DNA of 64,000 nt from Planctomycetota bacterium (GCA_965228735.1 OZ245838.1:1403011-1467010); one strand, 5' to 3'. Shown: positions 1 to 56,342, counted from the stretch's first letter. Translations and numbers: made by a program. Notes: generated from the letters alone by a model not told the origin.

Positions 1-2999
1 ATGTCCTCCTGCGCCGCGTTGGTCGGCATGCGGCGTTCGCCCTGCTGCGCCGGTTCGGGGTTCGCCAACTCGAGATCGCCCGCCCAATTCTCATCGAGGC
101 CGCTGCCGATGTTGATCGGCCCCATGCCCTGGATCTGCAGCTGAATCGGTCGCGGACTGGTCAGGAACCCGCGCGCCACGGCAAACCCACCGACTGCCGA
201 ACCGAGGCGCGTCTCACCCACCATCATCGGCGAGTCCGGCGACAGGAGGTTGCAGTAGCCGTAGAGCTCGACGCGCGCACCAACGGGGTGGGACGGGTAC
301 ACGTCGAGGTTGACGCCCTGCAGCTGATCGATGTCGATCGACGGATTGCCCTCGGCATCCAGCGGGATATCCGGTCGATGCTCGCTCGCGATCTGCCGCG
401 CGCCGCGCCCCCCGAACGAGTCGAGCCACTGGCACTGGAACGTGTTGCCGCTCACCGCGGTGTACTCGAACAGCTCGGTGCCGATCCGCAGCACCCCCTG
501 CGGCGGGAACCCATCCGCGTCCTCGACGTCGATGTTGAGGTAGCGCTGGTTGCCGGCACCCGGCGGGAACGTGTTCTGCGTGATCTGCGCCTGCGGATCG
601 AACGCGTCGATCGGCGACGTGAGATACGTCACGAACTGCTGCTTGCCGCGCGGCACGCCGTCGACGTGCAGCGACAGGTCGTGCGGCCGGCCGCTCTGCG
701 CCGAGACCGCGAGGTGTACGGGCGTGTCCGCCGGCAGGTTGATCTCCGCGAGCGGCACCTCGACGCGCAGCGACGTGCGCTCGACACCCGCCGGCGAATC
801 AGCCGGGTTGGGATCGAGCCCCGCCTCGTCGAGCATCTCGAGCACGAGGTTGCCGTCGCGCCCGAGCAGCGCGAGCCGGTTGCGTTCGAGGTCGCCGTCG
901 CCGTGATCGAGCAGCGTCACGCTGTCGAGCGTCTGCGGCTCCGCCCAGAACTTGACCGCGAACGGGTGCATGAACCCCATGTCCGCGCTGAACGGGAAGT
1001 TGATCTGGTGGCGGTTGCCGCCCTGCTGGGCGCCGCCGCTCCGGTTGGCCGGGCCGGTGTTCTGCATCAGGTACGGCCCGTCCTTGCTGACGTCCTGCCC
1101 GCGCGGATCGAGCCCGAGCGCGAAGCTCTCGTAGCCGCGGATCGTGCGGGCCCACGTCACGGCGGGCGTCGACGCCGGCCCCGGACGCATGCCCGCATCG
1201 ACGTCGTCCTTCGACGCATAGCGCGGCGCGCCGAGCCCAATGCCCGGGAACGCGTGCGCGATCAGGTGCGGGTTGTGACGGCCCGCGGGATCGACGCCGG
1301 CCTCGTTGGGCGGCACCGAACCGAGGTTGACCGGCGTCGTGAGCCAGAACGGCGCGCGCCGATCGAGGCGGAACGCATTTTCGAACTGTTCCTGCGTGCG
1401 CCAGTCGAGGTCGAGCTGGAAGCCCGGCACGGCGGCCGCGATGCCGACGCGCTCGTGGCGCGCCGCGATGTCGGCCGACAGCCGGCTGCGCTTGAGACTC
1501 GCCGCCGCGCGGAACCGGATCCACGGGCCGCTGTCGAAGCAGACCGGCGCGCTCCCCATCTCGAGGATCGCATCGCGCCCGGTGCGCAGGTTGCGATAGA
1601 GCAGCACCCACTGCATCTTCGACGCGAAGCCGTTCGCCGCATCGAGCCGCGGCACGAACAGGCGCTCGCAGAGATCCTGCCAGCTCCGGTACGGCCCGTC
1701 GTTCTCGCGGCTGCTCACGATCTCGTCGACGAGCGCTTTCGCCGTGCGCCGGGTGATCGGCATCGGCGGCTGGGTCTGCTGGCGGCCACCCGCGTGCACC
1801 CGGATGTCGCTCGCGCGCCGGTTGTCCTCGAACACCGCCATGAGCACGTTGGCGGGCGCCGTGTTGATGTTGACGGGCGGCGGCACGAGCGGCTCGACGA
1901 CGGTCGTGTCCGCGGCGAACGTCCGCGCCACCGGCATGAGCAGCTCGAGCCGGAAGATCGACGGCAGCACGAGGTCGCGCTGCGTGCGCTCCTGCATGTT
2001 CGTCGAGCGCATCACGACGTTGTACTCGACCGCGCCGCTCTCCATGTCGCGCAGCCGAACGGTGCTGCCCGCACCGACGTGGATCGCGTTCTTCACGCGC
2101 AGGCTGCGCGACAGCCCCGCCTGCATCGTGTCGAACACGCGCACGGGCCGCCCCCAGGTCGCCGACCGATGCGCCATCGTCGTGACGTGCAGCGCGGCTT
2201 CGAACTTGTCGATCTCCGGTTGCGAGAACTGGCCGATGCCGAACTCACCGACCTCGGCAAGCTCCGACACGGCAGCGTAGGGCCGGCGATCGGCCACGGA
2301 CGACGCGCGGCCGAGGTGCGGCCACGCGGCCGCGATCACGCAGCGGAAGTCGAGCGCGAGCAGCCGCACGGGATACGGCTCGGTCGGCTTGGCGAAGCCC
2401 TGGTCCTGGAACAACGCCCGTTCGAGCTCGAGGAGGCGATTGCCCTCCTTGCTGCCGTAGCGGATGACCTCGTGCCCGATCCAGAGGAAGCCCTCGTCGG
2501 GCAGCGATTCGGCCTGGTCGACGACCATCGCGCCCGCATCGGGCTCGAGCGGCTCGGCCAGGCGCACGGCCGTGCCGAGGACGTTCGCGAGCACGAGCGG
2601 CGAGGCCGCGTCGAGCGCCAGGTAGCGCTGCAGGTCCTCGACGCTGCCGCCGAGCGTGGTCCGCCCGTTGCTCTGCATCTGGGTCATCGCCTCGGGCAAC
2701 ACGACCCGGTCGGGCAGCTCCGCGAGCCCGTCGAACTCCGGATCCTCGTCGAACGGCGGATGCGACAGCACGGCATCGGCGATCAGCAGGTCGCGCACGC
2801 TCGCGGACGCCTGCTCGGCGCGCGCGGAGTCGACCTCACGCGCCGCGGCGTCGGCGCCCGCAGTCATGGACACGCTGAACGGCAGCGCCAGCAGCATCAG
2901 CAGCGTGAGCGCGAACAGCACCGCGAGCAGCGCAACGCCGCGCTCACCGCGCTCGAACCGACCGCGCGACTCGACTCGCGACATCAAGACCGTCGTCAT
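1..2999 (-). CDS. Giant GspK/PilX-like minor (pseudo)pilin, 3' end truncated by the window edge (>=999 aa); absent from the supplied ORF track
   Basis: ATG at 2999 overlaps the TGA (2996-2998) of the upstream pilin (ATGA coupling). Manual translation gives MTTVLMSRVESRGRFERGERGVALLAVLFALTLLMLLALPF (prepilin-like G|xALL start plus hydrophobic helix), and later in frame PYAAVSELAEV and PVNINTAPANVL (GspK-like HhH motif). No stop was seen in the portions translated. Confidence 0.75.
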   Translation of the reverse strand, partial: MTTVLMSRVESRGRFERGERGVALLAVLFALTLLMLLALPFSVSMTAGADAAAREVDSARAEQASASVRDLLIADAVLSHPPFDEDPEFDGLAELPDRVVLPEAMTQMQSNGRTTLGGSVEDLQRYLALDAASPLVLANVLGTAVRLAEPLEPDAGAMVVDQAESLPDEGFLWIGHEVIRYGSKEGNRLLELERALFQDQGFAKPTEPYPVRLLALDFRCVIAAAWPHLGRASSVADRRPYAAVSELAEVGEFGIGQFSQPEIDKFEAALHVTTMAHRSATWGRPVRVFDTMQAGLSRSLRVKNAIHVGAGSTVRLRDMESGAVEYNVVMRSTNMQERTQRDLVLPSIFRLELLMPVARTFAADTTVVEPLVPPPVNINTAPANVLMAVFEDNRRASDIRVHAGGRQQTQPPMPITRRTAKALVDEIVSSRENDGPYRSWQDLCERLFVPRLDAANGFASKMQWVLLYRNLRTGRDAILEMGSAPVCFDSGPWIRFRAAASLKRSRLSADIAARHERVGIAAAVPGFQLDLDWRTQEQFENAFRLDRRAPFWLTTPVNLGSVPPNEAGVDPAGRHNPHLIAHAFPGIGLGAPRYASKDDVDAGMRPGPASTPAVTWARTIRGYESFALGLDPRGQDVSKDGPYLMQNTGPANRSGGAQQGGNRHQINFPFSADMGFMHPFAVKFWAEPQTLDSVTLLDHGDGDLERNRLALLGRDGNLVLEMLDEAGLDPNPADSPAGVERTSLRVEVPLAEINLPADTPVHLAVSAQSGRPHDLSLHVDGVPRGKQQFVTYLTSPIDAFDPQAQITQNTFPPGAGNQRYLNIDVEDADGFPPQGVLRIGTELFEYTAVSGNTFQCQWLDSFGGRGARQIASEHRPDIPLDAEGNPSIDIDQLQGVNLDVYPSHPVGARVELYGYCNLLSPDSPMMVGETRLGSAVGGFAVARGFLTSPRPIQLQIQGMGPINIGSGLDENWAGDLELANPEPAQQGERRMPTNAAQED

Positions 3000-45555: not shown

Positions 45556-45878
45556 GCCGCCGATGTAGCGGATCCACGGGCCCCTGCCCAGCGCGACGAA
45601 GCTCCGGCGCGACCGGGTTTTCCCGCGCGATGAGGACCGTTTCGACACGGGATGCGGGCCACGGCCGGCCGCTTTCGTCCCCCGCCGAGACCGGCACGCA
45701 TCCCGCCGTTCTGGCAAGCCAGGACGCCGCACGGCGACCCTGCTGCCGCTTCGCGGTCGATTCCCGACCCCTGTTTGGGTTCAGCGTCGCCCGCCATCGG
45801 CCGATCAGTAGGGATGAACCCACGCCCTGACACTTGCGTGACGTGAACACCGGGCGAACGTTCCACCACGACACACCA

Positions 45879-46550
45879 ATGTACCTACGACACGCCGCTA
45901 CCATTCTGTTCACCATCGCGCTCGGCGCGTGCGCTTCGGGGTCGCGCCTCGAAGAGGCTCCGAACCGCAAAGAGAACCTCACGACCTGGATCGAGAAGGT
46001 CCACATCGAGGCCGGCCGCTCGCGCGACTCGATCGCCGAGAGCTACGAACGCCTGCAGATGCTCGCCTCCGGCGAGTACCCGCAGGGCGACGCCGCGATG
46101 GCCTACGCCCAGTTCGTGCAGTCGATCGACATCGCCGAGACCCAGGCCACGCGCTTCCGCGAGGTCGTCGAACCGCTCGCGTCCGCGGCCGCCCCGGTCT
46201 TCGAGCAGTGGGCGCAGGACGTCCAGACGATCGGCAACGAACGCCTGCGCACGCGCGGCGAGCTCAGCATGACCGTCAGCAAGGAACGCTACGAAGCGGT
46301 CCTCGCGTCGGCGAACGATGCCCGCGAGCAGTTCAACGGCTTCGTGCAGGACCTCCGCGACCACGCGGCGTTCCTCGCGCACGACCTCAACCCGCGCGCG
46401 CTCGACGAGATCCAGGAAGACGTGAAGATGGTGCGCAACAACGCGGAGAAGCTCGACCAGGAGCTCGACCGCACGCTCACCGCGGCGCGCGCCTACGTCG
46501 ATCTCAACGCGCTGCCGGCGCAGGGTTCGCCCGCGTCGCCGAATCGCTGA
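45879..46550 (+). CDS. Helical lipoprotein, DUF2959-like
   Basis: Lipobox IALGA|C; LRDHAAFLAHDLNPRAL resembles the DUF2959 consensus (recalled, not searched). Confidence 0.6.
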   Translation: MYLRHAATILFTIALGACASGSRLEEAPNRKENLTTWIEKVHIEAGRSRDSIAESYERLQMLASGEYPQGDAAMAYAQFVQSIDIAETQATRFREVVEPLASAAAPVFEQWAQDVQTIGNERLRTRGELSMTVSKERYEAVLASANDAREQFNGFVQDLRDHAAFLAHDLNPRALDEIQEDVKMVRNNAEKLDQELDRTLTAARAYVDLNALPAQGSPASPNR

Positions 46551-46565
46551 TCACCGAATCGCTGA
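46539..46565 (+). repeat. Direct repeat ccgaatcgctga x2 with 15-bp period, including the stop codon
   Basis: Copies at 46539-46550 and 46554-46565. Confidence 0.85.
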
Positions 46566-46692
46566 GCCCCGGACCGCTTGATCAGGGGATCGGCGAAACC
46601 AACGGGCCGTCCGCGGCCCATCACGATAGTCCGCGCTCGGGGAAGGGCGCGGACACCCCCATGACACCTGCACCCCGCCCCACAGGAGGCCC

Positions 46693-48921
46693 GTGACCTG
46701 GACGCTGCTGAGCTGCCTGGCCGTCGTGCTGCTCCTGGGCCTCGCGGTCGCGTTCCAGCGCCGCGCCGACCTGCGGCGGCAACGCAGCGTCGTGGCCGAA
46801 CGCGCCGCGATGGCGCGGCGCAAGAACGACACCGCACCGCTCGTCGTGCCGGTCATCGACCTGCAGCGGTGTCTCGGGTGCGGCACGTGCGTGCGCTCGT
46901 GCCCCGAGGAGGGCGTGCTCGACCTCGTGCATGGCCAGGCGGCCGTGGTCAACGCCGCGCAATGCGTCGGTCATGCGCGCTGTGTCGCGGAATGTCCCGT
47001 CGGCGCGGTCACGCTCGGCACCGGCGACCTCGCGGAACGCGACGACGTGCCCGTCCTCGGCCCGGATCTCGCGGCCGTCGGCACGCCGGGGCTGTATCTG
47101 GTCGGTGAAATCACCGCGAAGGCGCTGATTCGACCGGCCACCGAGCAGGGCGCGCGCGTAGCGCGCACGATCGGGCAGGCGCGGGGCGAGACCATGCCGG
47201 GCGTGCACGATCTCGTCGTCATCGGCGCCGGCCCGGGCGGTCTGGCATGCGCGCTGGGGGCGATCGAACAGGACCTCGACCTCCTCGTGCTCGATCAAGA
47301 ACCGGTCATCGGCGGCACCGTCGCGAAGTATCCGCGCCGCAAGCTCGTGCTCACCGAGCCGATCGACCTGCCGCTGCACGGCCGCGTGCGGCAGAAGGAG
47401 TTCGAGAAAGAGCAGCTCATCGACCTTTGGCAGGATCTCGCGGCCGAGCACCAGGTGCCGTTCCGCGGCGGCGTGACGTTCGAACGCTGCGAACGGCTGG
47501 CCGACGGCACGTTCCGGATTCACACCGACGCCCCGGACCTCGCGGAGCTGCGCGCGCAGAACGTCGTGCTCGCGGTCGGACGTCGCGGCCAGCCGCGCCG
47601 CCTCGGCATCCCGGGCGAGGAGCTGCCGCACGTCGCGTACAGCCTGCTCGACGCGGGTGCGTTCGAGGACTGCGAGATCGTCGTCATCGGCGGCGGTGAC
47701 AGCGCGGTCGAGGCCGCGATGGCGCTCGCCGATCAGGCCGGCAACCGCGTCACGATCGTCTACCGCCAGGACCAGTTCTTCCGCATCCGCCGCAAGAACA
47801 AGGACCGCCTCGAGCAGCGACTCGAGCCCGGTCGTCTCGAGGTCGTGTTCCGGCACGAGCCGACGGAGATCGACGTCGACTTCGTCACGATCCGGAGCAA
47901 CGACGGCTCGGGGGTCGAACGGGAGATCCCGGCCGATCAGGTGTTCGTCCTCGTCGGCGGCGAACCGCCGTTCCCCGCGCTGCAGCAGAGCGGCGTGTCG
48001 TTCGATCATTCGACGCCGGCAGCGGCTGCGGCCGCGAACACGCAGCCGTCCGAAACCGCGGCCGAGCGGTCGCTCTTGCCCGTCCTCGGCGGCTCCGTCG
48101 TGCTCACGCTCGCGACGTTCGCGTTCGCGCTCTGGCACTTCGACTACTACTCCAAGGTCGCAGCCCTCCGGGCCGCCGATCCGAAGCATGCGTTGCTGCG
48201 GCCCGATCAGAGCCTCGGTCTCTGGTTCGGGATCGTGGCGGTGATCGCGCTGCTCGCCAACCTCGCCTACCTGCTGCGCCGTCGTCTCACGGTCACGTTC
48301 GGGTCGCTCACGGGCTGGATGGACGCGCACATCGTCACGGGCGTCGGCGCGCTGCTGCTCGCGGCGTTGCACGCCGCGATGGCGCCGCGGTCGACGCCGG
48401 GCGGGCATGCGTTCTGGGCCCTCGCGGCGCTCGTCGTCACGGGCGCGATTGGCCGCTGGTTCTACGCCTGGCTGCCGCGCGCGGCGAACGGCCGTGAGCT
48501 CGACCTCGAAGCGATCCGTGGCGACCTGCGCTCGCAACGGGGCGGCACGACGGGGTTCGCCGCCGCAGCGCAGCAGGAGACCGAGAAGCTGCTCGAGCGT
48601 CGCCAGTGGCGTTCGACGTTCGCGGGCCGCGCGCTGACGCTGATCGGCCTGTCGTGGGATCTCAACCGCACGCTCAACCGGCTGCGGCAACGAGCCCGGG
48701 CCGAGGGCATCGCCCCCACTGATCGCAATGCGACGTTCGCGACGATCCGCGCGGCCTACAAGACGTCGGTCGCCGCGGGCCATCTCGAGGACCTGCGCGC
48801 CGTGCTCGCGACCTGGCGCTGGCTGCACCGCTGGCTCGCGCTGCTGCTCATGCTGCTCATCGGCGTCCACGTGGTCATGGCGTGGCTGCACGGCGCGTTC
48901 TCGTTCGGAGGCTCCGCGTGA
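46693..48921 (+). CDS. Membrane oxidoreductase fusion: TM anchor, 2x[4Fe-4S] ferredoxin, FAD/NAD(P)H TrxR-like domain, di-heme-b-like TM domain
   Basis: CLGCGTCVRSCP and CVGHARCVAECP; VIGAGPGG; VIGGGDSAVEAA..YR; two TM helices each with a His pair 14 residues apart (DAH...LHA; WLH...VHV). Confidence 0.85.
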   Translation: MTWTLLSCLAVVLLLGLAVAFQRRADLRRQRSVVAERAAMARRKNDTAPLVVPVIDLQRCLGCGTCVRSCPEEGVLDLVHGQAAVVNAAQCVGHARCVAECPVGAVTLGTGDLAERDDVPVLGPDLAAVGTPGLYLVGEITAKALIRPATEQGARVARTIGQARGETMPGVHDLVVIGAGPGGLACALGAIEQDLDLLVLDQEPVIGGTVAKYPRRKLVLTEPIDLPLHGRVRQKEFEKEQLIDLWQDLAAEHQVPFRGGVTFERCERLADGTFRIHTDAPDLAELRAQNVVLAVGRRGQPRRLGIPGEELPHVAYSLLDAGAFEDCEIVVIGGGDSAVEAAMALADQAGNRVTIVYRQDQFFRIRRKNKDRLEQRLEPGRLEVVFRHEPTEIDVDFVTIRSNDGSGVEREIPADQVFVLVGGEPPFPALQQSGVSFDHSTPAAAAAANTQPSETAAERSLLPVLGGSVVLTLATFAFALWHFDYYSKVAALRAADPKHALLRPDQSLGLWFGIVAVIALLANLAYLLRRRLTVTFGSLTGWMDAHIVTGVGALLLAALHAAMAPRSTPGGHAFWALAALVVTGAIGRWFYAWLPRAANGRELDLEAIRGDLRSQRGGTTGFAAAAQQETEKLLERRQWRSTFAGRALTLIGLSWDLNRTLNRLRQRARAEGIAPTDRNATFATIRAAYKTSVAAGHLEDLRAVLATWRWLHRWLALLLMLLIGVHVVMAWLHGAFSFGGSA

Positions 48922-50990
48922 ACAAGAGCAAGGCGGGGCTCGGGGTGGGGATCGCGTCGCTCGTCGGCGTGCTGCTGCTCGCGTTCGTGAATCTCGACCG
49001 CGAGCCGCCGGGCCCGGTCGCGGCCGTGCACGCCGCACTGCCCGAACTCGAGGGCGGCAGCAACTGCGCGGCCTGCCACGGCGGCTGGTTCGGCGACATG
49101 CAGAAGGCGTGCATGGAGTGCCACGCGGACATCGCGGACCAGCTGGCGCGCGGCAGCGGCCTGCACGGCCGGCTCGACGCGGGCGCGGCGGCGAGTTGCT
49201 CGACCTGCCACGGCGACCACCACGGCCAGGAGTTCCGGCTCGTGAACGCTCTCGCGTTCGCCCAGGCCGGCGTGCCGGACGAGCAGCAGTTCGACCACAG
49301 GATGGTCGGCTTCGCGATGCACGGGCGGCACACCGAGCTCGACTGCACCGAGTGCCACGAGCACGCCGAGACCGCGGTCCTGGCGGCAGGCCAGAAGCGC
49401 TACCTCGGTCTCACGCAGAACTGTGCGACGTGCCACGAGGATCCGCACGGCGGTCAGATGCAGATGAACTGCACGACGTGCCACGGCCAGGATTCGTTCG
49501 ACGAGCACATCGTCCGCAACCACGACGCCCACCTCGAGCTCAGCGGCCCCCACGGCAACGCGACGTGCCGCGACTGTCATGCGACCGGCACGCGGCACGC
49601 CCTCGAACACATCCCGCAGGGTGGCATCGCGCGTGGGCGTGCGTGCGGCGACTGTCACGAGTCCCCGCACGATCCGACGTTCGTTTTGGCCAACGGCGCC
49701 GCGATGGAACTGTCGCCGAACCAGAGCTGCGAGGTCTGCCACTCGCTGGCGATTCCGCACTTCGACGACCCGGTCGTGACGGTGACCCCGGCGCAGCACG
49801 CCCACTCGGGCTTCTCGCTCGGGGAGCCCCATGCGGCCGTCCGCTGTGAGCAGTGCCACCCGGCCGGCCAGGACCGCGACGCCAGCGGCGACGATTGGGC
49901 GATCCGCCACCCGGGGCGCGATGCGAAGGACTGCCGCGCGTGTCACGAAGATCCGCACGGCGGCCAGTTCGACAACGCGCCGTTCGCCGCCGAGGGCTGC
50001 ATCAGCTGCCACGCGGAGACTCACTTCGGCCCGCACGAGTTCGATCTCGCGGCCCACGCCCGGACGACCTTCCCGCTCACGGGCAAGCACTCCGAGCTCG
50101 GCTGCGAGTCGTGCCACCCCGATCCGAAGGGCGACGAGCCCCGCCAGTTCGACGGCACACCCAACCGGTGCGAACAATGCCACGACGACGCCCACCACGG
50201 CGCGTTCGCGGCGCACCAGGACCGCTTCGCCGCCAATCCACGGGGCTCGTGCGCCGAGTGTCACGGCACCGAGCTGTTCCGCAACGTCGACCTCGCCGTG
50301 TTCCACCATGGCGAGCACGCCGGCTTCCAGCTCGACGGCGCCCACGATCAGATCCACTGCACCGACTGCCACGAACGCACCGCCACGCCCGACGCGCTCG
50401 GCCGCACGTTCGGCCGGATTCTCGACGGCGACCGCGAGTGGAACGGCTGCCGCACCTGCCACCAGGATCCGCACGACGGCAAGTTCGACTCCGCGACGCT
50501 GCCGCAGGAGATCGACGGCCGCCGCGGCTGCGTGCGATGCCACTCCACGGTCTCGTTCCGCCTGCTGCCGCACGGTTTCGAGCACGGCGCGTTCACGGGC
50601 TTCGAGCTCGCCGGCGCCCACGCCAAGATCGACTGCGCCGCGTGCCACCTGCCGCGCGACGAAGAGACGCCAGCCGGCCGCACGACGATGCCCGCCAACG
50701 GCACCAACTGCGGCGACTGCCACGAAGACTCGCACCAGAATCAATTCGAGCGCCTCGGGCGCACGGATTGCGCCCGGTGCCACAAGAGCCAGATCTCGTT
50801 CCGCCGGATCTCGTTCCGACACAACCTCGACTCGCGGTTCGCGCTCGGGGACGCGCACCAGAAGGTCGCGTGCAAGGAGTGTCACAAGGTGGAAGACATC
50901 CACGGCGTTCAGGCCGTTCGCTACAAGCCACTGCCGACGAAGTGCGTCGAGTGCCACGGCACGGACAACCCGCGAAGGAGACGACGATGA
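48918..50990 (+). CDS. Membrane-anchored multiheme cytochrome c, 23 CxxCH motifs (690 aa)
   Basis: 23 CxxCH counted by hand; N-terminal hydrophobic helix; GTG start overlaps the upstream TGA. Confidence 0.93.
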   Translation: MNKSKAGLGVGIASLVGVLLLAFVNLDREPPGPVAAVHAALPELEGGSNCAACHGGWFGDMQKACMECHADIADQLARGSGLHGRLDAGAAASCSTCHGDHHGQEFRLVNALAFAQAGVPDEQQFDHRMVGFAMHGRHTELDCTECHEHAETAVLAAGQKRYLGLTQNCATCHEDPHGGQMQMNCTTCHGQDSFDEHIVRNHDAHLELSGPHGNATCRDCHATGTRHALEHIPQGGIARGRACGDCHESPHDPTFVLANGAAMELSPNQSCEVCHSLAIPHFDDPVVTVTPAQHAHSGFSLGEPHAAVRCEQCHPAGQDRDASGDDWAIRHPGRDAKDCRACHEDPHGGQFDNAPFAAEGCISCHAETHFGPHEFDLAAHARTTFPLTGKHSELGCESCHPDPKGDEPRQFDGTPNRCEQCHDDAHHGAFAAHQDRFAANPRGSCAECHGTELFRNVDLAVFHHGEHAGFQLDGAHDQIHCTDCHERTATPDALGRTFGRILDGDREWNGCRTCHQDPHDGKFDSATLPQEIDGRRGCVRCHSTVSFRLLPHGFEHGAFTGFELAGAHAKIDCAACHLPRDEETPAGRTTMPANGTNCGDCHEDSHQNQFERLGRTDCARCHKSQISFRRISFRHNLDSRFALGDAHQKVACKECHKVEDIHGVQAVRYKPLPTKCVECHGTDNPRRRRR

Positions 50991-52723
50991 CCGGTCAGCC
51001 CGTCCACTCCTGCCCACCGCCTCATGCGCCGCTCGGTCGCATCGTCGGTATGGCACTCCTGCTCACGGCTCCTGCGCTCGCGCAGGTCCCGCGCTTCAAC
51101 AAGGTCGAGGTGCGCATCATCGCGACGCCACGCGCCGGGGTCGTGACGATCGACCGCGGCACGCGCGACCTCGTGCAGAAGGGCGACAAGGTCGTGCTGC
51201 TGCCGCGCGACGGCCGCGTCCTGCACGGCACGGTCAGCGCGACCGAGTCGCGCACGTCGACCGTCGAGCTCGTCAATCCGAACGACAAGGTCCGACCCGG
51301 GGTGCGCGGCGAGGTCCTCGTGCCGCGGATGCGCCGCCAGCAGCAGGACGAGCCCGCGAAACCGATCGAGCGACCCGCGGATCCGGTCGCCGAGCCACAG
51401 GAACCCGACAAGCCGGCGGACGAGCCCGAGAAGCCCGCAGACGGGGAACGGCGGTTCGGTGACGACAACTGGCGTCCCGGCATGCCGCTGCTCACGGGCG
51501 GCCGCCCGCTGCGCCCGAACGAGCGCGTCACCCGGACGACCGGTCAGGTCTACACCGCGGGCGACCTCACCCGCACGCTCGATACCTGGAACAACTCCTA
51601 CTTCCGGCTCGGCACGAACCTCGACGTCGAGAACCCCGCCGGCTTCGGTGGCGTGCTGCGCATCAACACCGAGTTCGCGCAGCTCACCGAGATCAACGAT
51701 CAGACCGACCCCGACCTGCGCGTCTACGAGCTGTCCTACGAGCTCGGCGGCAACCGCTACGAACCGACGCGCTGGACGTTCGGCCGGTACCTGTCGCGCG
51801 ACATGCCGGAGTTCGGCCTCGTCGACGGCATCGAGTGGAGCCATCGCACGGACACCGGCCAGCGGTTCGGCGTCAGCTTCGGCGCGCTGCCCGAACTCGA
51901 CGAAGACCTCGACACGGGGTCGGACCTGCAGTTCGCGGCCTATTGGCTGTGGCCCGACACGATCGCCGAACGGTTGACGTTCGGCCTCGGCTACCAGAAG
52001 ACGTGGCACCACCTGCGCGCCGACCGCGACCTCATCGTCGGCAAGATGCGCTACCTGCCGATCGATGGCTGGGACGTCGCCGCGACGACCTGGATCGACA
52101 TCTACTACGGCAGCGACACGAAGGGCGACGGCCCCGAGCTCACCCGCGCCCGCGCGCACGCGACGCGGCGTTACGACACGGGCGGCGGACTGCAGTTCAC
52201 CTACGATCACGAAGAACTCGTCGATCAGCGCCGCACGGAGTTCCTGCAGACCATCCAGCCCGCGACGCTGCTCAACGCCCACGCCGACCGTGTCACGATG
52301 CATGCCTGGTCGATGACGGACGGCGGCAGCCGGCTGTTCACGCGCATCACGGGTTTTCACGACCAGGCCCGCACGGGCGGGACGGCCGAAGCGGGCTTCC
52401 TCGCCGACGATTGGCTCATGGACGAGATGCGCAGCGGCCTCGCGGCATTCGTCGTGCACGGCCGTCACAGCACGGTCGCGGGCGGCCGGCTCGACCACAG
52501 CGGTGAGGCCTGGGGTGGCCGGCTCGACGCCCTGCTCGAGGTGTCGTTCGTTCACCACGAGAGCTTCAACAACGACGGCGACGATCTGATCCAGTACCGC
52601 CTCGGCGCGTACTGGACACGCGCGGTCGGTGACAACTGGTACCTTCTCAGCTACGGCGACTCGACCCTCTGGGACACCGAGTTCTCGATGAGCGCCGGCT
52701 TCTACCTCCAACGGACGTTCTGA
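50987..52723 (+). CDS. Outer-membrane beta-barrel protein (putative cytochrome-conduit porin) with N-terminal periplasmic domain and Pro-rich linker (578 aa)
   Basis: AAGGAG RBS and ATGA overlap; signal peptide (ALLLTAPALA|Q); amphipathic beta-strands; C-terminal beta-signal GFYLQRTF. Confidence 0.72.
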   Translation: MTGQPVHSCPPPHAPLGRIVGMALLLTAPALAQVPRFNKVEVRIIATPRAGVVTIDRGTRDLVQKGDKVVLLPRDGRVLHGTVSATESRTSTVELVNPNDKVRPGVRGEVLVPRMRRQQQDEPAKPIERPADPVAEPQEPDKPADEPEKPADGERRFGDDNWRPGMPLLTGGRPLRPNERVTRTTGQVYTAGDLTRTLDTWNNSYFRLGTNLDVENPAGFGGVLRINTEFAQLTEINDQTDPDLRVYELSYELGGNRYEPTRWTFGRYLSRDMPEFGLVDGIEWSHRTDTGQRFGVSFGALPELDEDLDTGSDLQFAAYWLWPDTIAERLTFGLGYQKTWHHLRADRDLIVGKMRYLPIDGWDVAATTWIDIYYGSDTKGDGPELTRARAHATRRYDTGGGLQFTYDHEELVDQRRTEFLQTIQPATLLNAHADRVTMHAWSMTDGGSRLFTRITGFHDQARTGGTAEAGFLADDWLMDEMRSGLAAFVVHGRHSTVAGGRLDHSGEAWGGRLDALLEVSFVHHESFNNDGDDLIQYRLGAYWTRAVGDNWYLLSYGDSTLWDTEFSMSAGFYLQRTF

Positions 52724-52733
52724 GGCATCCCCC

Positions 52734-53396
52734 ATGCGCACGAATCGACCAACCAATCGCTTCCGCCTCGGCCACGCGCTCGTGCTGGCCTGGATCGTCG
52801 CCGTCGTCGCCTGCACCGTGGTGTCGCCGCGGGAACGCGAACTCCACCGCTGGTGGGCCGGCTTCGGCATGGTCGTCAAGCACGACTCGTTCCCGGGCGA
52901 GTGTGGTGACTGCCACATCGGCGCCAACTGGAACGAGATCTCGGCCACGTTCGAGTTCGACCACGAGCGGGAGACCGGCGTGGCACTGACCGGCGCGCAC
53001 GCCCAGGCGCAGTGCCTGCGGTGCCACAACGATCGCGGCCCGGTCGCGACGTTCGCCGCGAAGGGGTGTGCCGGCTGCCACGAGGACGTGCACTACGGCG
53101 AGCTCGGCAAGGACTGCACGACGTGTCACAGCGACACGGTCTGGCGCGTCCCGAACGCGCGCGTCAACCACCTGCACGGCCGCTTCCCGCTCACGGGAGC
53201 GCACCTGCAGGTCGCCTGTCACCGCTGCCACGCCGGCGCCTGGGTCCGCAACTTCCGCCCGACGGATCCGACGTGCGAGAGCTGCCACTACGACGAGGGC
53301 GCCAACGTCAACAACCCACCGCACCTCAACCTCGGCTGGACCGACTGCGACCGCTGCCACATCCCGACCGGCTGGCGGCCCGCGGTCATCCGCTGA
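52734..53396 (+). CDS. Hepta-heme cytochrome c lipoprotein
   Basis: Lipobox-like IVAVVA|C; 7 CxxCH; same LTGAH..CxxCH repeat type as the 23-heme protein. Confidence 0.88.
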   Translation: MRTNRPTNRFRLGHALVLAWIVAVVACTVVSPRERELHRWWAGFGMVVKHDSFPGECGDCHIGANWNEISATFEFDHERETGVALTGAHAQAQCLRCHNDRGPVATFAAKGCAGCHEDVHYGELGKDCTTCHSDTVWRVPNARVNHLHGRFPLTGAHLQVACHRCHAGAWVRNFRPTDPTCESCHYDEGANVNNPPHLNLGWTDCDRCHIPTGWRPAVIR

Positions 53397-53540
53397 CACC
53401 CAGGAGCCTGGGCCACGAAACCCCTCGATGACACGGACATGACGAACCGCTCCGTCCCGAACCGGGATCACTACGGGTTGATCCGGTCTCGAAAGGTCGA
53501 TGAACCCGGCACTCGGGAGGTCCCTGGAGGACCGAAGGCC

Positions 53541-56342
53541 ATGAAGCAGACCTTGCACCGCCCATTGAGTCTGACCGCGCTCGCATTCGTGACCGCGGTC
53601 GGCTGGCTGTCGATCACGTCCTCGTGCGTCGAGGAAGCCGGTCGCGAGTCGTCGCTCGCGACGGCCGAGTCGTGCATGAGCTGTCACAACGGCTCCCTGC
53701 ACGATGACTACGCGGGCCCGGGTCTCGAGAACCCGCACCCGTTCCCCGGCGATGCGGAGGTGCTGACCTGCACCGCGTGTCACGGCGGCAACCCGAACGG
53801 TCGCGATGCGGCCTCGGCCCACGTGCCGCCGCCGCCGTCGATCGGCGACCGCGACTTCCAGGACCGCAACGCGCAGGCCTACTTCAACAAGCTGACGCTC
53901 ACCGGCATCGACAAGGTGCCGGATTACACCGTCGACGGTGTGACCTACACCGGCATCGACTACCTGCAGTTCCTCAACCCGGGCGACCTCCGCGTGACGG
54001 AAGCTGCGCGCGGCTGCGGCGAGTGCCACGGCGATCACAGCGCCAGCATGGCGCGCGCGCCGATCGGCCTGTCGATGGGCATCTTCTCGGGCGCCTCGTA
54101 CGCGAGCGGCCAGCTCAACCAGATCCCGGGCCACCAGGGCCTGTTCGAGGACACGGCCGCGGACCTCGCGTTCCGCGCGGTCACGGATCCGAGTCACGTC
54201 CACAGCGCGACCGAGGTCGGCAAGATCGGGCAACTCATCGAAGCGCCGGTCTGGGCGTCCCGGCAGGACCAGGGCCCCGACTTCCTGTTCCGCAACCAGG
54301 ACTTCGTCGTCGCCAATCTCGTCAACGACGTGAACGCCGACGGCTCGCTCGTCAACAACTCGCGGCTCGCGAAGCTCTACCAGGAGCAGGTCATGTTCAC
54401 CTGCGGTGACTGCCACGCCGGCAGCAGCGGTGCGAACAACCGCTACGGTGACTTCCGGCCGTCCGGCTGCGCGGCGTGCCACATGCCCTACAGCCTCGAC
54501 GGTCGCAGCCGCAGTCTCGACCCGAACGTCCCGAAGGACGAACCCGCGGACCCGGACGACATCGACGATCCGGAACGCGCCCACGTGCGCGCCCACCGGA
54601 TCGTCAACGTCAATCGAACGCTGAGCAACGGCGTGCAGGTCGGCGGCATCGACGACTACACCTGCGCCGGCTGCCACCAGGGCAGCAACCGCACGGTCAT
54701 GCAGTACTGGGGCATCCGCCTCGACCAGAACGAGGACGTGCGCCGCGGCTTCCAGTACCCGGCCAACCCCGTCGAGTTCCGGACGACGCGTTTCGACACG
54801 CGCCTGTTCGACCCGGAGGTCGACAACAACACGTTCAACGGCCGCAATCACCGCCAGTACCTGCTGTTCGAAGACTACGACGGCGACACGCGTGACGACA
54901 CGCCGGCCGACGTGCACTACGAAGCGGGCATGGGCTGTGTCGACTGCCACGGCGGCACCGACCTGCACGGCGAGGTCAAGACCGGCGGCGGCGCGATCGT
55001 CAGCCGCATGAGCCACGCGGTCGCGATCTCGTGCGAGACGTGCCACGGTTCGTCGACCGCGTACGCGGCGACGACCGTCGGCGAGAACTACCAGGGCTTC
55101 ACCGTGCCCCTCGCCGTCGACGAGAAGGGCGTCGCGTTGCGTCACGTCGAGCGCGACACCGACGGCAACTACTGGCTCACGAGCAAGCTCACGGGCAACC
55201 GCCACTTCATCCGCCAGACGATGGACGTCGTCGTCGACAACGGCAAGCTGAACCCGTTGACCAACGAACCGCTCTACTCGGCCAAGGCGTCGTTCGCCAT
55301 GGGCCGCGACGACGGCCTGGCATCGACGGGCCTCGGCCCGCAGCAGAACGGCGTGACGGCGACCGGCTTCGCCCACAGCGACAGCATGGACTGCGCGTCG
55401 TGCCACTCGGCGTGGACCAACACGTGCATCGGCTGCCACCTCGAGGGTGAGTACAACGAGGGCAACAACTTCAGCAACGTCACGGGCGAGCGGATCTCGT
55501 TCCGGGAACGCTTCGCGGAGTTCGTCTACCAGTCGCCGGTGAACTTCAGTCTCGGCGTCGGTCCGGACAACCGGATCACGAACACCGCGGCCAACACCAA
55601 GGTGTTCTTCCGCTACACGGACATCAACGGCGACCGGACCCCGGTGTTCGCGTTCAGTGACCGCAACGGGCAGGGCAGCAACACCGCCGCCAACCCGGCG
55701 CGGCCGCTGCCGTCGCTCGGGCACAACGCGCTCATGGCGCACTCGATCCGTGGTCGCGTGACCGCGAGCAACGAGGGGCCGCGCTACTGCGTGTCGTGCC
55801 ACCTCACCGACACGGCTCTCGCGAACCACCGGACGGCGTACGAGACGTTCCGCACGCAGCTGGCGACGAACGACTTCGCGAACATCGACTACGACACGTT
55901 GCGCACCCACATCGGGCTCAACCCGGGCAACCAGCTCAACTCGCCGTGGTTCGTGCACATGGCCGCCGGTCTCGGCACCGGTCTCTACCTGTTCGACGCC
56001 AACGGTGGCGCGCAGAACCCGATCGACGACAACGCCAACCGCTACGGCAGTGACGGCGTCGCCCCGCGCGACCAGTTCAACCCAGCCAACGTGGTCTACG
56101 ACCTCGATCGCGTCGTCGACGACACGAACGGCCGTTCGAACGGTTCGAGCAGCGTGCCCATGGATCAGCCGATCCTCGGCCCGCTGCGCCGCACGGGCGC
56201 AACCAACACGAACATGACGGGGCCGCTCGGCCTGAACCTCGCGAACCGGCTGGCCGACCCGAACACGGGCATCATCCTCAACGCGTGGATCAACGCGGAC
56301 GGCGTCGCAAACGGCTTCGCCGCGCAGATCATCGACCCGTAG
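53541..56342 (+). CDS. Large multiheme cytochrome c, probable lipoprotein, 11 CxxCH (933 aa)
   Basis: GGAGG upstream of ATG 53541; signal ending ITSS|C; 11 CxxCH counted by hand with long heme-free inserts. Confidence 0.88.
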   Translation: MKQTLHRPLSLTALAFVTAVGWLSITSSCVEEAGRESSLATAESCMSCHNGSLHDDYAGPGLENPHPFPGDAEVLTCTACHGGNPNGRDAASAHVPPPPSIGDRDFQDRNAQAYFNKLTLTGIDKVPDYTVDGVTYTGIDYLQFLNPGDLRVTEAARGCGECHGDHSASMARAPIGLSMGIFSGASYASGQLNQIPGHQGLFEDTAADLAFRAVTDPSHVHSATEVGKIGQLIEAPVWASRQDQGPDFLFRNQDFVVANLVNDVNADGSLVNNSRLAKLYQEQVMFTCGDCHAGSSGANNRYGDFRPSGCAACHMPYSLDGRSRSLDPNVPKDEPADPDDIDDPERAHVRAHRIVNVNRTLSNGVQVGGIDDYTCAGCHQGSNRTVMQYWGIRLDQNEDVRRGFQYPANPVEFRTTRFDTRLFDPEVDNNTFNGRNHRQYLLFEDYDGDTRDDTPADVHYEAGMGCVDCHGGTDLHGEVKTGGGAIVSRMSHAVAISCETCHGSSTAYAATTVGENYQGFTVPLAVDEKGVALRHVERDTDGNYWLTSKLTGNRHFIRQTMDVVVDNGKLNPLTNEPLYSAKASFAMGRDDGLASTGLGPQQNGVTATGFAHSDSMDCASCHSAWTNTCIGCHLEGEYNEGNNFSNVTGERISFRERFAEFVYQSPVNFSLGVGPDNRITNTAANTKVFFRYTDINGDRTPVFAFSDRNGQGSNTAANPARPLPSLGHNALMAHSIRGRVTASNEGPRYCVSCHLTDTALANHRTAYETFRTQLATNDFANIDYDTLRTHIGLNPGNQLNSPWFVHMAAGLGTGLYLFDANGGAQNPIDDNANRYGSDGVAPRDQFNPANVVYDLDRVVDDTNGRSNGSSSVPMDQPILGPLRRTGATNTNMTGPLGLNLANRLADPNTGIILNAWINADGVANGFAAQIIDP

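Follow-up and report, generated by a model that had tools for sequence, protein, structure and literature searches.

Can electrons from reduced nicotinamide adenine dinucleotide (phosphate), NAD(P)H, reach the outside of a Gram-negative cell without passing through the quinone pool? The question is raised by a locus in a 64,000-nucleotide stretch of DNA from a Planctomycetota bacterium (GCA_965228735.1, OZ245838.1:1403011-1467010; the whole stretch is referred to here as the window, and positions are counted from its first nucleotide), in which six co-oriented genes (g0 to g5) include those for a membrane flavocytochrome, three multiheme cytochromes and a predicted outer-membrane barrel. To our knowledge, all characterized Gram-negative conduits (Mtr, Pcc/Ext and Mto/Pio) connect with the quinone pool by way of quinol dehydrogenases of the CymA, ImcH or CbcL type. 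Our analysis slightly favors the interpretation that the g0-g5 operon specifies an envelope-spanning electron conduit that would be fed from the cytoplasm, would be independent of quinones, and would run outward in the manner of an NADPH oxidase (NOX).

Five of the genes carry this proposal, and all are on the plus strand. The first, g1 (46693-48921), encodes a membrane flavocytochrome of 742 amino acids without CxxCH motifs, the proposed entry module, and its end overlaps the start of g2 (48918-50990; 690 amino acids, 23 CxxCH motifs) in a GTGA. The third gene, g3 (50987-52723), overlaps g2 in an ATGA and encodes an outer-membrane protein of 578 amino acids, also devoid of CxxCH motifs. Two lipoprotein genes follow, g4 (52734-53396; 220 amino acids, 7 CxxCH motifs) after a gap of 10 bp and g5 (53541-56342; 933 amino acids, 11 CxxCH motifs) after a further 144 bp. 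Re-translation of the coordinates reproduced exactly the anatomy given in a preliminary description of this DNA, including the single orientation of the five genes and the total of 41 CxxCH motifs (23+7+11); there are no CxxxCH or CxxCK variants in the operon proteins.

A candidate NAD(P)H entry module

The g1 protein can be divided into three parts, which were compared across 44 orthologues (identities among g1 orthologues range from 40 to 71%). The first is a ferredoxin domain (residues 51-110; 46843-47022, plus strand) that matches Pfam Fer4_10/Fer4_21 over residues 53-107. Its first cysteine motif is complete (C60, C63, C66 and C70), and its second has three cysteines only (C91, C97 and C101), with position 94 occupied by H, V, I or S. 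With the ligands swapped between motifs, cluster I would be held by C60, C63, C66 and C101, all of which are invariant, and cluster II by C91, C97 and C70; because cluster II has just three cysteine ligands it is read as [3Fe-4S], and the domain probably carries one [4Fe-4S] and one [3Fe-4S] cluster.

The second part is a two-Rossmann domain for flavin adenine dinucleotide (FAD) and NAD(P)H (residues 172-440; 47206-48012, plus strand; Pyr_redox_3, E 2e-33 over residues 175-440), in which the dinucleotide motifs GAGPGG and GGGDSA are invariant. Its closest sequences in the Protein Data Bank (PDB) are YpdA and ferredoxin-NADP reductases resembling thioredoxin reductase (TrxR), and its best Foldseek matches are 7apr, 2zbw, 3ab1 and 6gar (E 1e-18 to 1e-16). 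The possibility that g1 is a thioredoxin or bacillithiol-disulfide reductase was considered and discarded, since no redox CxxC is conserved in the flavodomain of the orthologues; in addition, the NCBIfam scores fall below their cut-offs (YpdA TIGR04018, 139.6 bits with a cut-off of 339.9; TIGR01292, 68.7 bits with a cut-off of 343), and what is shared with these families is the fold alone. The domain is more like a TrxR-type ferredoxin-NADP reductase that carries its own fused ferredoxin.

The third part is a C-terminal membrane domain (residues 455-742; 48055-48918, plus strand) of five transmembrane helices with a cytoplasmic helical insert of about 110 amino acids. In the AlphaFold2 (AF2) model of g1 (mean predicted local distance difference test score, pLDDT, 82.3) these five helices after the flavodomain are joined by an N-terminal transmembrane helix (residues 1-21) to give six. 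The N-terminal helix leads into RRADLRRQR and no Tat motif is present, which would place the ferredoxin and flavin parts in the cytoplasm; the loops obey the positive-inside rule. Two of the helices bear a W-x3-H-x13-H motif (WMDAH546-x13-H560 and WRWLH712-x13-H726), the helix between them contains TGAIG, and all four histidines are invariant, an arrangement that would put one b heme near each face of the membrane. All members of a set of 21 orthologues match both DUF4405 and Ferric_reduct, and 15 of the 21 match cytochrome b561, with every score below its cut-off: for DUF4405 (PF14358) the g1 of the window has 20.5 bits with a cut-off of 26.7 and the best orthologue an E of 4.4e-7, and for Ferric_reduct (PF01794) all 21 are under the 28-bit cut-off, with a best E of 3.5e-5. 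In a profile of the membrane domain the last helix aligns with helix B of cytochrome b6, which likewise has two histidines 13 residues apart, and which we take to be the ligands of the b6 hemes. Binding of heme b in vitro has been shown for one DUF4405 protein, which has been proposed as a transmembrane electron carrier (PMC11334425). The NAD(P)H entry module attributed to the operon in the preliminary description is supported, in that g1 combines ferredoxin and NAD(P)H-flavoprotein domains with a putative di-heme-b membrane part in which four histidines are invariant.

Type-B succinate:quinone reductases, too, join a flavoprotein to Fe-S clusters and a di-heme cytochrome b. This shared architecture, together with weak Ni_hydr_CYTB and cytochrome b6 matches that suit a quinone-reactive cytochrome b, would favor an arrangement in which the module works like a di-heme succinate:menaquinone reductase or a NarI-type anchor, exchanging electrons with menaquinone at its membrane domain, and the pool feeds the cytochromes. 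Indeed, He et al. (2017) suggested quinone activity for the membrane proteins with the same motifs in PCC3 and PCC4 (PMC5566968), PCC3 being a porin-cytochrome type predicted from sequence in iron oxidizers and biochemically untried (PMC5566968; PMC9900912). However, we regard a quinone-linked module as improbable here. First, no quinone-site motif was identified in the heme-b domain. Second, g2 is translationally coupled to g1 and appears to have its own anchor, which would set a heme c beside the periplasmic heme b and make a quinone a detour. Third, the nearest relatives studied by experiment (DUF4405, MsrQ-like and PepSY-like proteins) have been described as moving electrons across the membrane to partners outside the cytosol (PMC11334425).

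The strongest evidence that a flavoprotein and a heme-b protein would cooperate and feed cytochromes, as the direct entry of electrons from NAD(P)H supposes, is a pattern of fusion and splitting seen when sequences related to g1 are compared. An exhaustive profile search with the g1 membrane domain gave 2604 cluster representatives at E <= 1e-3, and many of these relatives are stand-alone proteins of 280-300 amino acids; a word-indexed search returned mostly fragments of fused orthologues and one distant split form, such that the profile search was needed for the stand-alone family. At all five of the stand-alone heme-b loci examined there is an adjoining gene for a Fer4-Pyr_redox flavoprotein of 440-500 amino acids, the stop codon of which overlaps the heme-b gene start in four (the flavoprotein of locus L084 is divergent). 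Multiheme cytochromes adjoin in all five, and a barrel-sized protein of about 545-590 amino acids without a Pfam family does so in four.

These five loci come from varied sources. An unassigned metagenome contig of 3.2 kb (L083) has the flavoprotein, the heme-b protein and the beginning of a multiheme cytochrome, and a Myxococcaceae metagenome-assembled genome (MAG), GCA_004297725.1 (L084:6509-13738), has the divergent flavoprotein, a heme-b protein of 285 amino acids, a 36-heme cytochrome, a 5-heme lipoprotein and a protein of 544 amino acids that is remotely akin to g3 (hhalign probability 75%, E 2e-5). An unassigned contig of 1.86 Mb (L085) encodes the flavoprotein, the heme-b protein, two cytochromes, a 586-amino acid protein and another cytochrome; an Elusimicrobiota MAG (L086) encodes proteins of 514 and 551 amino acids, the flavoprotein, the heme-b protein and a cytochrome; and a Planctomycetota MAG (L087) encodes two cytochromes, a 547-amino acid protein, the flavoprotein and the heme-b protein. 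The proteins of 514-586 amino acids in these last three loci match no Pfam family.

A proposed route from the inner membrane to the cell surface

The g2 cytochrome is of the c7/c3 type, with roughly triheme repeats at about 30 amino acids per heme (Cytochrome_C7, E 3e-27 in six stretches). Its N-terminus, which is kept in the orthologues, runs from a basic stretch through a hydrophobic helix to RKSPGP; a cleavage site is not evident, and the segment looks like an uncleaved signal anchor that would tether g2 to the inner membrane beside g1. By analogy with polymers of c7 domains, the 23 hemes presumably extend over some 20 nm. Sequence and profile searches of the PDB with g2, g4 and g5 gave only c3/c7 matches and weak matches to NrfA heme pairs.

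The g3 protein begins with a signal peptide (cleavage between ALA and QV), followed by a small beta domain in the AF2 model (residues 37-113; 51095-51325, plus strand; weak MreC-barrel Pfam match, E 6e-4), a disordered Pro/Glu-rich linker (residues ~122-175, plus strand) that forms a tether of about 55 residues, and a modelled beta-barrel (residues 183-578; 51533-52720, plus strand) that ends in a terminal Phe. The model has a mean pLDDT of 83.7 and 22 strands, in agreement with the earlier designation of the 578-amino acid protein as a beta-barrel, and 22 is the strand number of the TonB-dependent receptors that hold a plug. Since barrels of this size in TonB-dependent receptors accommodate a plug of about 150 residues, a slim heme domain could fit in the lumen of g3. 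Foldseek comparisons return usher pores, TonB-dependent receptors and porins at TM-scores of 0.3-0.45, with no MtrB structure among the matches listed, and g3 has no family match in Pfam or NCBIfam, MtrB/PioB included. The small beta domain, which together with its tether takes up 51095-51500 (residues 37-175), is confidently modelled, is apparently also present in the Myxococcaceae counterpart (L084), and could serve for docking to g2 or to the cell wall.

The two lipoproteins differ in their construction. The g4 protein has a lipobox, VVAC, that is conserved in its orthologues, and c7-type units that are homologous to the g2 repeats (33-37% identity). A variant of the locus (L069:5554-12933, MAG JALWOP010000355.1) encodes a g1-like protein of 747 amino acids, a 26-heme cytochrome, a barrel of 541 amino acids and a 17-heme lipoprotein, which stands where the 7-heme g4 would; g5 is missing there, and six of the most divergent barrel loci have no g5 inside the flank. 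We take the 17-heme g4 of this variant without g5 as support for the view that g4 passes the barrel and extends outward. The g5 protein, a lipoprotein with Cys29 at its attachment position, has about 85 amino acids per heme and a heme-free C-terminal region of about 180 amino acids, and across 21 orthologues all 11 CxxCH motifs, Cys29 and at least 12 further histidines are invariant. As at least 12 invariant histidines lie outside the CxxCH motifs, all 11 hemes could be bis-His. Its family likeness is weak and local (MtrC domain II/IV, ExtM and NrfA heme pairs), and it has no solved relative.

The properties of g5 bear on a different explanation, in which g1 and g2 feed the periplasm and g5 is a reductase whose substrate is soluble (peroxide, a metalloid oxyanion, or a compound of sulfur or nitrogen) and enters via g3, which would then be a porin and not a cytochrome sheath. 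It is g5 that is best conserved among the five proteins (median identities are 59% for g5, 54% for g4, 48% for g1, 46% for g2 and 35% for the barrel) and that has many invariant non-heme residues; its 85 amino acids per heme leave space for a catalytic or binding domain, and its weak likenesses are to ExtM, from a Geobacter selenite/tellurite operon, and to the heme pairs of NrfA/MccA. Nonetheless, it seems unlikely that the system is a reductase confined to the periplasm. A 23-heme wire anchored in the inner membrane would be needless for a periplasmic acceptor, the barrel is always accompanied by a small c7-type lipoprotein (two loci are borderline), and the lipoprotein of the variant lacking g5 has 17 hemes, as a wire leaving the cell would. 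Moreover, no open catalytic heme is apparent in g5, in which the invariant histidines suffice for bis-His ligation throughout.

For the outward conduit we propose the following path. NAD(P)H would reduce the FAD of g1, and electrons would move to the fused ferredoxin, with its [4Fe-4S] and probable [3Fe-4S] clusters. Two stacked b hemes, one bound by H546/H712 toward the cytoplasm and the other by H560/H726 toward the periplasm, would then take the electrons over the inner membrane. There they would be received by g2, which would be tethered at the inner membrane and is probably long enough for the whole periplasm. The outer membrane would be passed inside the 22-strand g3, most likely on g4, as MtrA does in MtrB, and g4 would deliver electrons to g5 and from there to an acceptor outside the cell or on its surface (metal oxides, humics or possibly O2). 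What the analysis shows is the gene structure, the assignment of domains and folds, the invariant ligands, the conservation and the relation between fused and split forms; from these we infer the cofactor loading, topology, barrel occupant, direction and acceptor, as well as the surface exposure of the lipoproteins and the flow of electrons itself.

Several points weigh against this path. First, every Pfam match of the heme-b domain sits under its curated cut-off, and the Foldseek matches listed for g1 all lie in the flavodomain, the NOX/MsrQ-like membrane fold being predicted from sequence. Second, a quinone site on the heme-b domain is possible. Third, the threading of hemes through the g3 barrel, with g4 as the most likely occupant, is argued from analogy, and g4 and g5 are placed on the cell surface by prediction. 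Fourth, conservation is highest in g5 (median 59%) and lowest in the barrel (35%), which one would not expect if g5 were an exposed terminal cytochrome and which hints that g5 acts like an enzyme or is tightly docked. Finally, no RNA run with the locus was found, and four public runs look like DNA, with long and evenly covered contigs.

Conservation, distribution and host genome

Synteny was assessed from 80 barrel loci. Of the 63 with enough flank, 61 have g1, directly followed by g2, ahead of the barrel, and g4 begins no more than 400 nt downstream of the barrel in 71 of 73, the g4 match overlapping the end of the barrel match in the remaining two. The g5 gene is present inside the flank in 56 of 62 loci and is immediately adjacent in 43. 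Heme numbers behave similarly: g2 orthologues have 23 hemes in 62 of 65 instances and 26 in the other three, g4 orthologues have 7 in 50 of 53, and g5 orthologues have 11 in all 54. Because heme counts and gene order recur in the orthologues, this block of genes is not a chance arrangement; order and heme numbers are kept across about 60 Planctomycetota species.

Inserts of 1-8 kb separate g4 from g5 in Saltatorellus ferox Poly30 (L056:12446-17154) and about ten other loci. The inserted genes were considered as extra parts of the conduit in S. ferox and rejected, as the insert encodes an asparagine synthase and hypothetical proteins. In such species g5 would be a separate transcription unit, since the insert splits it from g4, although it is still nearby.

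Homologues of the barrel are found only in Planctomycetota-type MAGs and in S. ferox Poly30. In a survey of the phylum with an even sample of 401 species genomes, carriers amount to 36 of the 401, to 30 of 244 high-quality genomes and to 34 of 288 genera (about 9-12%), and within the order to which the organism of the window belongs they reach 14 of 24. Several Planctomycetota genomes (10 listed) have two full-length copies of the barrel, and these probably have two paralogous conduits; the genome of the window has a single copy of the barrel locus. It also encodes, at C1:3840346-3843120, a distant g5 paralogue (924 amino acids, 12 CxxCH motifs, 26% identity over 386 amino acids) that is isolated: the genes around it are unrelated, and neither a barrel nor a g1-like gene is close by.

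The same genome encodes ResB and CcsA (system II, C1:790-792 kb), which answers the check on cytochrome c maturation suggested by the preliminary description, and two to three heme-copper oxidases. From these genes it is concluded that the organism makes c-type cytochromes and respires oxygen and, given the oxidases, that the conduit would be an accessory route.

Metagenomes from coral, macroalgae and algae contain DNA nearly identical to part of the locus (window 50987-54500; 13-63% of sampled 31-mers), which suggests that the organism or its close relatives live on marine hosts. The isolate and contig names of carrier MAGs point to sludge, groundwater, a lake and subsea-tunnel biofilm, and the names OFTM34, OFTM151, OFTM205 and OFTM272 fit the OFTM MAG series from an Fe/Mn-oxidizing subsea-tunnel biofilm (PMC10732223).

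These coral and algal settings are oxic and presumably rich in reactive oxygen species, the organism is aerobic, and the input module is a functional analogue of NADPH oxidase. All three observations would suit a conduit of the same composition that is devoted to oxygen chemistry, either through NOX-like production of extracellular superoxide, used for instance in Mn(II) oxidation or in interaction with an algal or coral host, or through NAD(P)H-dependent reduction of external peroxide. However, 41 c hemes and a barrel are excessive for this purpose because O2 diffuses freely into the periplasm, and g5 has no evidently open heme coordination site; we consider oxygen chemistry a very improbable function.

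Upstream of g1 there is a sixth co-oriented gene, g0 (45834-46550, plus strand), that was absent from the preliminary description and ends 142 bp before g1. It encodes a DUF2959 lipoprotein (Pfam DUF2959, E 6e-19; lipobox LGAC), and its true start is probably an internal Met codon near 45879. The protein has no redox motif and DUF2959 has no known function, yet g0 is a syntenic neighbor of g1 and is directly upstream of it in 44 of 61 loci. The operon is flanked by genes on the opposite strand, coding for a BNR/SASA esterase, a phosphopantetheinyl transferase and a Ser/Thr kinase, and these were dismissed as parts of the conduit, being unrelated and on the other strand. With g0 co-oriented upstream and the flanking genes unrelated and oppositely oriented, the unit is taken as 45834-56342. 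A promoter and terminator scan of the locus was uninformative, the DNA being 70% GC.

Direction of electron flow and comparison with known systems

The interpretation offered in the preliminary description was supported on every point that could be tested, and nothing that it had named as speaking against a conduit was encountered. It had called the direction of flow unknown, and here we depart from it, as redox potentials and membrane potential both point outward. The NAD(P)H donor has a potential of about -320 mV and the export of electrons runs with the membrane potential, and for these reasons flow is likely to be outward. On this view no energy would be gained as electrons cross the inner membrane, and the system would therefore act as an electron sink, restoring NAD(P)+ under oxygen shortage in an otherwise aerobic heterotroph. 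No energy-coupling element, such as a proton pump or a bifurcating partner, is present in the operon.

Flow in the opposite direction, to NAD(P)+ from a cathode or from Fe(II) or Mn(II) outside the cell, is the role first proposed for PCC3, which is the closest described type and comes from Fe(II) oxidizers (PMC5566968), and the match of the OFTM carrier names to the Fe/Mn-oxidizing tunnel biofilm series is in keeping with it (PMC10732223). But electrons from Fe(II) or Mn(II) would have to climb steeply to reach NAD(P)+ (-320 mV) and would move against the membrane potential, the operon has nothing to couple the necessary energy, and none of the carrier lineages is known to be lithotrophic. 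Inward uptake is the explanation to which we assign the lowest probability of all those considered.

More broadly, quinone-independent export of electrons from NAD(P)H may exist as one conserved cassette, essentially an NADPH-oxidase-like flavocytochrome connected to 41 c hemes and an outer-membrane barrel, in about a tenth of Planctomycetota species, with a split form in Myxococcota and Elusimicrobiota and probably in the PCC3 of iron oxidizers, a generalization that we offer tentatively and at somewhat less than an even chance. If it is correct, metabolism in the cytoplasm would have a second link to redox chemistry outside the cell, one that conserves no energy, predicted PCC3-type systems would be fed from the cytoplasm rather than from quinones, and the unexplained 'conserved inner membrane protein' of PCC3/PCC4 clusters would gain a testable role. 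Electroactivity would reach aerobic, surface-associated Planctomycetota (of corals, algae, sludge, groundwater and Fe/Mn biofilms), and many aerobic heterotrophs could shed surplus reductant onto minerals, humics, partner cells or oxygen. As one fused polypeptide, g1 would be an attractive minimal part for engineered wiring of NAD(P)H to electrodes. Even if the conduit interpretation is wrong, a widespread, conserved and uncharacterized 41-heme system remains, in which the barrel (with its tethered domain) and the 11-heme lipoprotein each represent a new protein family.

Which known systems, then, does the locus resemble? The order g2-g3-g4-g5 presumably parallels that of extABCD. In general layout the locus is like MtrCAB (PDB 6R2Q) and the Geobacter OmaB-OmbB-OmcB/ExtABCD systems, in that a periplasmic multiheme cytochrome, a barrel and one or more lipoprotein cytochromes are encoded together, but those systems are fed by the quinol dehydrogenases CymA, ImcH and CbcL and here there is an NAD(P)H flavoprotein. 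The barrel and cytochromes had been judged unlike Mtr in the preliminary description, and hidden Markov model searches, which also covered the Geobacter Pcc/Ext families, agree, with scores far under the cut-offs: g2 has 46.7 bits with DmsE/MtrA TIGR03508 (cut-off 192) and 22.9 bits with ExtN (cut-off 200), g5 has 55.3 bits with ExtM NF040943 (cut-off 800), and g5 has 37.3 bits with the MtrC domain II/IV model with no single stretch passing. On these scores, and with MtrB missing from the structural matches listed, membership in Mtr or Geobacter Pcc/Ext was rejected.

The entry module has several analogues. It shares with NADPH oxidase/FRD proteins and with MsrQ-Fre a cytoplasmic NAD(P)H/flavin part and helices with Hx13H spacing, and would likewise pass electrons over two stacked b hemes to an extracytosolic acceptor. 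However, g1 has an N-terminal TrxR/YpdA-type flavoprotein and a fused two-cluster ferredoxin, in contrast to the C-terminal plant-type ferredoxin-NADP reductase domain of NOX/FRD; its dehydrogenase is not homologous to those of NOX/FRD or MsrQ-Fre, and its proposed acceptor is a 23-heme cytochrome. The DUF4405 cytochromes are similar in having six transmembrane helices, four central conserved histidines and a proposed function in carrying electrons over the cytoplasmic membrane (PMC11334425), but they occur with ApbE/flavinylated proteins, whereas g1 occurs with multiheme cytochromes and a barrel and has its own fused donor. Likewise the Ndh2-EetAB-PplA route of Listeria has a dedicated NAD(P)H-oxidizing entry enzyme and serves redox balance over proton pumping, although it belongs to a Gram-positive cell, uses a quinone (demethylmenaquinone) and flavinylated lipoproteins and involves neither hemes nor an outer membrane. 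In the literature searched we found no description of a porin-cytochrome conduit fed by NAD(P)H.

The resemblance to PCC3, on which the preliminary description did not remark, is closer, as judged on motifs, heme counts and layout. First, the inner-membrane protein of PCC3 has five transmembrane helices, with W-x3-H-x13-H on the third and fifth and SGxxG on the fourth (PMC5566968), and the membrane domain of g1 has both of the W-x3-H-x13-H motifs and TGAIG (T for S). Second, the periplasmic cytochromes of PCC3 have 21, 24 or 27 hemes (PMC9900912), a range in which the 23 hemes of g2 (26 in variants), in repeats at 30 amino acids per heme, are included. Third, the adjoining barrel g3 is modelled with 22 strands, as predicted for the transmembrane strands of the porin in the PCC3 of Leptothrix cholodnii, where the periplasmic cytochrome has 24 hemes. 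The differences are equally specific. The membrane part of g1 is fused to a ferredoxin-flavoprotein, which is not described in PMC5566968 or PMC9900912; the outer part of PCC3 is a single dense cytochrome (10-35+ hemes, about 26-30 amino acids per heme), in contrast to the 7-heme lipoprotein and the heme-poor 11-heme lipoprotein (85 amino acids per heme) found here, a PCC3-like lipoprotein with 17 hemes being present only in the L069 variant that lacks g5; and the host is a planctomycete and not a proteobacterial iron oxidizer. On balance, and with modest confidence, we lean toward regarding the cluster as a PCC3-like porin-cytochrome system whose entry module would take electrons from NAD(P)H independently of quinones.

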